Positions 16,845 through 16,861 of a DNA stretch of 64,000 bases are shown here, piece after piece. Under the pieces are notes generated by a model. The model was given only the letters and a program-made list of their open reading frames with translations. It was not told the DNA's origin and ran no database searches. Origin of the DNA: Escherichia coli (lineage in GTDB: Bacteria; Pseudomonadota; Gammaproteobacteria; Enterobacterales; Enterobacteriaceae). The DNA lies in assembly GCF_003334315.1 (NCBI RefSeq), contig NZ_QOWR01000016.1, one strand, 5' to 3'. The position numbers were made by a program, and so were the translations under genes. Positions within the stretch are counted from its first letter, which is position 1. Each line of letters starts with the position of its first letter.

Positions 16845-16861
16845 TTAAACAAAACCTAAAC
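16845..16861 (-). promoter_or_regulatory. PhoP box (TGTTTA-N5-TGTTTA direct repeat) upstream of yrbL
   Basis: Minus-strand read TGTTTAGGTTTTGTTTA (plus taaacaaaacctaaaca), about 50 nt upstream of yrbL ATG. Confidence 0.5.

Follow-up and report, generated by a model that had tools for sequence, protein, structure and literature searches.

The yrbL locus and the question it raises

In the Escherichia coli chromosome the gene yrbL is preceded, in its own orientation, by a direct repeat of the form recognised by PhoP. The question raised by this locus is whether the repeat is the site through which PhoP switches on yrbL, or a short sequence that resembles such a site by accident, that mainly serves another regulator, or that matters little to a gene transcribed from further upstream. 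The window referred to below is the whole stretch of DNA analysed, 64,000 nucleotides (64 kb) of E. coli chromosome; a 401-nt stretch of it around the repeat matches all 5426 complete E. coli genomes, many of them at 100%. Its gene order here is arcB, elbB, mtgA, yrbL, npr, rapZ, ptsN, hpf, rpoN, lptB, and the genes flanking the repeat are annotated by RefSeq as yrbL, which starts at the ATG at 16793..16795 (MIRLSEQ..., the RefSeq start), and npr. The intergenic region between these two genes (16796..17008) is 213 nt long, and the features within it are listed in Table 1. The original prediction remarked on the presence of yrbL inside an otherwise nitrogen-PTS/rpoN neighbourhood; the location is as described, but no significance attaches to it, as the npr-yrbL-mtgA order is simply conserved in the Enterobacteriaceae and the functions are unlinked. 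At the other end of the gene, the coding sequences of yrbL and mtgA face each other and have 4 bases in common at their stop codons (16163..16166; yrbL ends at 16163 and mtgA at 16166), so the two genes must share or overlap their 3' ends. There is reportedly one mention of yrbL in a paper on "excludons" (PMC12288877).

Table 1. Features of the yrbL control region and its flanking genes (window coordinates)
Feature	Coordinates	Strand	Remarks
yrbL coding sequence	16163..16795	-	210 aa + stop; protein-kinase-like
Shine-Dalgarno AGGAG	16801..16805	-	5 nt before the yrbL ATG; read from sequence
-10 hexamer CATACT	16829..16834	-	invariant in 12/12 aligned sequences
11-nt spacer AGTTAATCGAC	16835..16845	-	PhoP box to -10 hexamer
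PhoP box TGTTTA-GGTTT-TGTTTA	16846..16862	-	direct repeat, same orientation as yrbL
PmrA/BasR box CTTAAG-AAAAC-CTTAAG	16869..16885	.	perfect direct repeat
Conserved block TTGTACATTTTGTGCGCTTT	16902..16921	-	20 nt, ~40 nt upstream of PhoP box
npr (ptsO)	17009..17281	-	last gene of rpoN operon, upstream of yrbL; ORF list and RefSeq

A single perfect PhoP box

Read from the sequence, the minus strand at 16846..16862 is the 17-mer TGTTTAGGTTTTGTTTA, and the minus-strand order of elements is GAACCTTAAGAAAACCTTAAGAGGCAT - TGTTTAGGTTTTGTTTA - AGTTAATCGAC - CATACT - GGAGATCGTCAGAAAATATTTCCAGGAGATGGC - ATG. The original prediction, that this strand carries a perfect (T/G)GTTTA-N5-(T/G)GTTTA direct repeat about 50 nt before the yrbL ATG, holds in substance: the distance is exactly 50 nt, and only the coordinates it gave (16845..16861) are one base low. 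The repeat is the sole perfect match to KGTTTA-N5-KGTTTA on both strands of the 64-kb window, for which dinucleotide-preserving shuffles give a mean expectation of 0.03 perfect matches, any match at all being present in 3 of 100 shuffles. When up to two mismatches are allowed, the window contains 16 sites against 13.3 expected, so degenerate PhoP-like sites occur at chance frequency and only the perfect site stands out. Two of these imperfect sites, both of a quality found at chance frequency, were considered and set aside: one with a single mismatch (24937..24953) lies within the first codons of an ORF, and one with two mismatches that resembles the mgtA box (48436..48452) lies deep in a long ORF.

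The shortness of the consensus, and the chance frequency of sites with up to two mismatches, are what could be said for regarding the repeat as an accidental match with no regulatory role. Its rarity in perfect form argues against this, as do its correct orientation and its position 11 nt from an invariant -10 hexamer within a 213-nt intergenic region, its conservation above background across genera (below), and the binding of PhoP-P in vitro to the identical sequence upstream of a gene that is PhoP-dependent (PMC5775216, PMC3335776); the probability of a mere chance match is negligible. We consider instead, with a probability of roughly 0.93, that PhoP binds the site and thereby activates the E. 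coli yrbL promoter. The feature is already known, as the published PhoP site that switches on yrbL at low magnesium.

Architecture of the yrbL promoter

The box was also proposed to stand in for the -35 element, and the sequence agrees: it ends 11 nt from CATACT, and a usable -35 hexamer is lacking. At 17 and 18 nt upstream of CATACT stand AGGTTT and TAGGTT, which match TTGACA at only 1/6 and 2/6 positions, respectively. A sigma-70 consensus scan of 16600..17300 returned no promoter-like sites. On sequence grounds, a weak -35 together with the absence of a sigma-70-like site is the look of an activator-dependent promoter, and the box, its spacing, the poor -35 and the conservation would place the yrbL promoter in the PhoP class II "architecture I". 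The members of this group are yrbL, mgtA, phoP, slyB, pmrD and orgB; since their box overlaps the -35, class II activation was predicted for them (PMC3335776).

The expected course of activation is as follows. Low Mg2+ or other signals sensed by PhoQ would lead to phosphorylated PhoP, a dimer of which would bind both TGTTTA half-sites at 16846..16862, a position that overlaps the would-be -35 element 11 nt upstream of CATACT. There PhoP would recruit sigma-70 RNA polymerase to a promoter that lacks a usable -35 (class II activation), and transcription would start a few bases downstream of CATACT to give a leader of ~30 nt with the AGGAG ribosome-binding site. The class II contact between PhoP and polymerase has been demonstrated only for mgtA, and at yrbL we infer it.

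Transcription usually starts 5-8 nt downstream of a -10 hexamer. The S1-mapped start of Salmonella yrbL is only 2 nt downstream of CATACT (PMC3335776, Table 2), and so unusually short a distance points to a small error in the placing of the start or of the -10. The sequence CCAGGAG is kept in most of the orthologous yrbL leaders aligned. We note that the minus-strand leader contains a Dam site (GATC, 16822..16825) just downstream of the -10 and near the expected start, and a Dcm site (CCAGG, 16803..16807) that overlaps the ribosome-binding region; a study of a dcm deletion lists yrbL as one of the five genes with the most significant up-regulation (log2FC +0.83; PMC11741368).

Published evidence for control by PhoP

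The sequence of the site, its rarity, its geometry, the missing -35 and the conservation are observations made here, and PhoP binding, the dependence on PhoP and Mg2+ and the repression by PmrA are taken from the literature. Membership of yrbL in the PhoPQ (low Mg2+) regulon, which the original prediction gave as established, is indeed published for Salmonella, Shigella and E. coli. The Salmonella yrbL promoter has been described with a single PhoP box in direct orientation, TCGTTTAGGTTTTGTTTAA (Zwir et al. 2012, PMC3335776), that is 11 nt from the -10 (Table 1 of that paper), the one exception to the usual 12 nt, with a CATACT -10, a "-35" of TAGGTT with four mismatches and a 5' leader of 32 nt (PMC3335776). 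The E. coli window shows the same geometry to the base. S1 mapping found a single start there, which requires low Mg2+ and is absent in a phoP mutant (PMC3335776). Of 20 PhoP targets in Salmonella yrbL is the first to be transcribed, and early occupancy of its promoter by PhoP-P has been measured in vivo (PMC4196223). The yrbL box of Shigella flexneri 2a, tTGTTTAggtttTGTTTAa, is identical to that of the window, and PhoP-P shifts the Shigella yrbL promoter fragment in EMSA (PMC5775216); the footprints and lacZ fusions of the same study concern other promoters, not yrbL. Deletion of phoPQ in Shigella cuts yrbL mRNA 14- to 50-fold, to 0.02 of the wild-type level in the microarray and to 0.07 in qRT-PCR (PMC5775216).

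For E. coli itself, Minagawa 2003 and Zwir 2005 are the reports that citing papers name for yrbL as a PhoP target, and a yrbL reporter in E. coli responds when PhoP is induced by light (PMC13215669). That reporter has a low sensitivity to PhoP and saturates early (PMC13215669), which argues that PhoP is not the sole determinant of yrbL output. yrbL does not belong to the universally shared "core" PhoP regulon: Perez et al. list phoPQ and slyB alone as common to the ten species, and yrbL goes unmentioned there (PMC2650801).

A further possibility is that yrbL is transcribed chiefly by read-through from rpoN-hpf-ptsN-rapZ-npr, with the PhoP promoter a minor contributor. No terminator-like hairpin is present between npr and yrbL on this strand of the window, so read-through from the rpoN operon may contribute, and the genes keep their order across relatives; the spacer RNA folds no more stably than shuffles (z = -0.01) and carries no structure signal. 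Together with the one return of an Rfam scan (E = 0.29, below), this fold value led us to drop a terminator, an sRNA and a structured leader as candidates in the spacer. Several relatives do have a hairpin and T-run after npr, examples being the GC hairpins with a T-run in Siccibacter and Pluralibacter. In the same place several other Escherichia lineages have an inserted GC hairpin, after which an A-run comes on this strand. Indels are concentrated in the part of the spacer that lies upstream of the conserved block. The 14- to 50-fold dependence on PhoPQ in Shigella, where the deletion leaves 2-7% of the yrbL mRNA (PMC5775216), argues that any read-through is minor, and the single PhoP-dependent start in Salmonella (PMC3335776) and the hairpins of the relatives also stand against it, so that read-through as the chief source of yrbL mRNA is extremely improbable.

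A PmrA/BasR box adjoins the PhoP box

The original prediction overlooked an adjacent PmrA/BasR box, which lies 6 bp upstream of the PhoP box. It is the single match to YTTAAK-N5-YTTAAK in the window, where 0.03 are expected; a full 9-nt unit, AACCTTAAG, is repeated in it with an 11-bp period, and its CTTAAG hexamers are palindromic. Its mean identity among 12 Escherichia, Citrobacter and Salmonella sequences is 0.95, with 14/17 columns invariant, and it is found as well in Siccibacter, Pluralibacter, Erwinia sp. and Cedecea, the last two of which have it turned round with respect to yrbL (its spacer is GTTTT, not AAAAC), an inversion made possible by the palindromic hexamers. In E. coli and Salmonella the PhoP and PmrA sites of the yrbL promoters have been described as ~24 bp apart, with PmrA acting as a repressor (PMC2681069, PMC3335776, PMC4196223), a repression that citing papers trace to Zwir 2005, and in a 2026 transcriptome of iron-adapted E. 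coli B yrbL ranks with the most strongly down-regulated genes wherever expression of basR, eptA and the arn genes is raised (PMC13405929). The yrbL promoter is a two-regulator promoter, under PhoP and PmrA/BasR. PmrA activated by Fe3+ or by PmrD would turn it down through CTTAAG-N5-CTTAAG, and from this upstream position we infer that it does so by sterically blocking either PhoP or the C-terminal domain of the polymerase alpha subunit.

When the PhoP box is read with a 2-nt shift it becomes TTTAGG-TTTTG-TTTAAG, one mismatch away from the PmrA pattern, and most orthologues allow the same one-mismatch reading. This pseudo-box leaves room for PhoP and PmrA to compete at the PhoP site, although it is out of register, and it raises the possibility that the repeat mainly serves another OmpR/PhoB-family regulator, for example PmrA/BasR spreading from its own box. 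Such a reading, in which the one-mismatch fit to YTTAAK-N5-YTTAAK is joined by the documented role of PmrA as a repressor of this promoter (PMC3335776, PMC4196223), is nevertheless very unlikely: the pseudo-box is 14 bp, not 11 bp, from the register of the true PmrA repeat, and binding of PhoP-P and dependence on PhoP have been shown directly (PMC5775216, PMC3335776, PMC4196223). PmrA binding here would moreover add to activation by PhoP, not replace it.

Relation to other PhoP-regulated promoters

The closest known system is yrbL of Salmonella enterica, an orthologous gene in the orthologous locus, which likewise has a single direct box, 11 nt to CATACT, no real -35 and a PmrA box ~24 bp upstream of the PhoP box (PMC3335776). 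It differs in its half-sites: the first is CGTTTA there and TGTTTA in the E. coli window, and the second is TATTTA in the two Salmonella loci fetched, so the E. coli site is closer to consensus. The canonical PhoP boxes of mgtA and phoP, in E. coli as in Salmonella, are the same direct repeat overlapping the -35 about one helical turn from the -10 (PMC3335776), but at 12 nt from it rather than the 11 nt of yrbL; mgtA has a long regulatory leader where that of yrbL is short, and unlike both of these promoters yrbL carries a site for a repressor (PmrA) in addition. The pmrD promoter, a "bi-fan" motif activated by PhoP and repressed by PmrA, resembles that of yrbL in its class II PhoP box with a PmrA box nearby and in its negative feedback (PMC2681069). 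Its two boxes are ~38 bp apart, in contrast to ~24 bp at yrbL (PMC2681069), and its product is an activator of PmrA, while no role in the circuit is known for YrbL.

Conservation across species

In an alignment (A1) of the yrbL upstream regions of 12 Escherichia, Citrobacter and Salmonella sequences, majority identity is 1.00 for the -10 hexamer, 0.96 for the block at 16902..16921, 0.89 for the PhoP box (9/17 columns invariant) and 0.84 for the transcribed leader (16796..16828), against 0.54-0.69 for the other upstream segments (spacers, gaps and the npr-proximal part). The -10, the PhoP box, the PmrA box and the 20-nt block thus stand out as four islands of conservation, while the intergenic region around them diverges. 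The PhoP half-sites in this alignment are TGTTTA, CGTTTA, CGTTGA, CATTTA and TATTTA; the spacer between box and CATACT varies in sequence and is constant in its length of 11 nt.

More distant syntenic yrbL loci were reached through protein homologues. The 11-nt distance to the -10 is retained in Siccibacter (CGTTGA-N5-CATTTA, then CATACT), Erwinia sp. (CATTGA-N5-TATTTA, then CATACT) and Cedecea (CGTTTT-N5-CATTGA, then TAGACT). Pluralibacter is the weakest case, with neither clear PhoP half-sites nor a comparable -10 hexamer upstream of yrbL. Outside Escherichia, Citrobacter and Salmonella, then, the box decays and, except in Pluralibacter, the geometry is kept. Enterobacter hormaechei has a yrbL paralogue at an unrelated locus that is preceded by the block, a degenerate repeat of the PmrA type, TGTTTA-N5-CATTTA and, after 11 nt, CATAAT; the presence of the whole module with this non-syntenic paralogue indicates that the control region belongs to yrbL and not to npr. 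On these comparisons the PhoP box is ancestral in the enterobacteria, and Escherichia preserves it best.

Variation within E. coli

A 60-nt promoter core that extends from the PmrA box to the -10 was compared across 5426 complete E. coli genomes, and is present at 90% identity or more in every one of them (5426/5426). It is identical to that of the window in 3130 genomes, K-12 MG1655 included; another 2289 are 95-99% identical, differing from the window core at one to three positions, and seven are 90-95% identical. The box variants described here, at 16851 and 16855 of the window, are those of four variant strains sampled. In three of these four (118UI, UM146 and ST131 strain 4993) a T-to-C change makes the second half-site CGTTTA, which falls outside the strict (T/G) consensus, and B2 strains such as UM146 have a G-to-A change in the box spacer. 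ST131 strain 4993 (NZ_CP103557.1) in addition lacks one 11-bp unit of the PmrA repeat (window 16875..16885), which leaves a single PmrA half-site; seven genomes share the 90-95% identity band with this strain. The loss of the unit in strain 4993 is a natural test of the repression of yrbL by PmrA.

A conserved block upstream of the two boxes

The block TTGTACATTTnGTGCnCTTT is the best-conserved non-coding stretch of the region, and occurs in a single copy in the window. From Escherichia to Salmonella 18/20 of its columns are invariant, so it is more tightly conserved than the PhoP box, and it is partly retained in Siccibacter, in Pluralibacter and upstream of the E. hormaechei yrbL paralogue. 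It reads as two tandem 9-mers, GTRCRYTTT, and its first half, TGTACATTTT, has what we take to be a resemblance to an OmpR/RstA-type half-site. A permissive Rfam scan of 16600..17300 left the block unmatched, its sole return being a meaningless snoRNA (E = 0.29), and a literature search for the sequence of 16902..16921 gave nothing relevant. A small ORF of 21 codons that runs from a TTG in the block to the PhoP box was rejected, as relatives have indels and unconserved sequence between the two. The block may tentatively be regarded as a third, undescribed operator of yrbL, though we think this rather less probable than the alternative that it is not one.

The YrbL protein

The function of YrbL is still unknown (PMC5775216). 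The window protein matches the NCBIfam equivalog NF007671 over residues 1-210 of 210 (398.9 bits, cutoff 227) and Pfam PF10707 with E = 2.3e-67, and has a weak Pkinase match besides; a PDB search found no close relative, only weak protein-kinase matches with E of at least 0.008. In an alignment of YrbL homologues (A4) it keeps the glycines of the Gly-rich loop (G11, G13), the VAIK lysine (K30), the helix-C glutamate (E46), the catalytic-loop asparagine (N135) and a DFG-like aspartate (D152). At the position of the catalytic (HRD) aspartate every homologue except the most distant has Ser, Thr or Asn, which makes YrbL an atypical kinase or a pseudo-kinase. Deletion of yrbL leaves the output of a PhoP reporter unaffected (PMC2789325), and peptide-resistant E. 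coli acquired a V149L change in yrbL along with a mutation in envZ (PMC9241736).

Homologues of about 50% identity to YrbL are encoded 14-26 nt downstream of dnaE on gut metagenome contigs (L025, L026, L027 and L028), where they adjoin a Kdo/WaaP-type kinase (PF06293), glycosyltransferases and an O-antigen-ligase-like gene (Wzy_C), and some of these loci contain a second YrbL-family copy. No PhoP box was found at these four dnaE-linked loci. This LPS-core gene context raises the possibility that YrbL-family proteins act on the LPS core. We also note that a 420-nt contig labelled Tannerella forsythia ATCC 43037 (NZ_JUET01000135.1) encodes YrbL residues 1-129 with 99% identity to E. coli, and is almost certainly E. 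coli contamination of the Tannerella assembly.

Significance

The yrbL site is a textbook example, one that has already served in defining the consensus of the PhoP box and the class II architecture of the regulon, and the value of the present analysis lies mainly in its correct annotation, with little beyond. What it adds is the one-base correction of coordinates, the adjoining PmrA box, the variation among 5426 genomes, the conserved block and the hint of a connection with the LPS core. If a further envelope-stress regulator binds the block, yrbL would integrate three two-component inputs.
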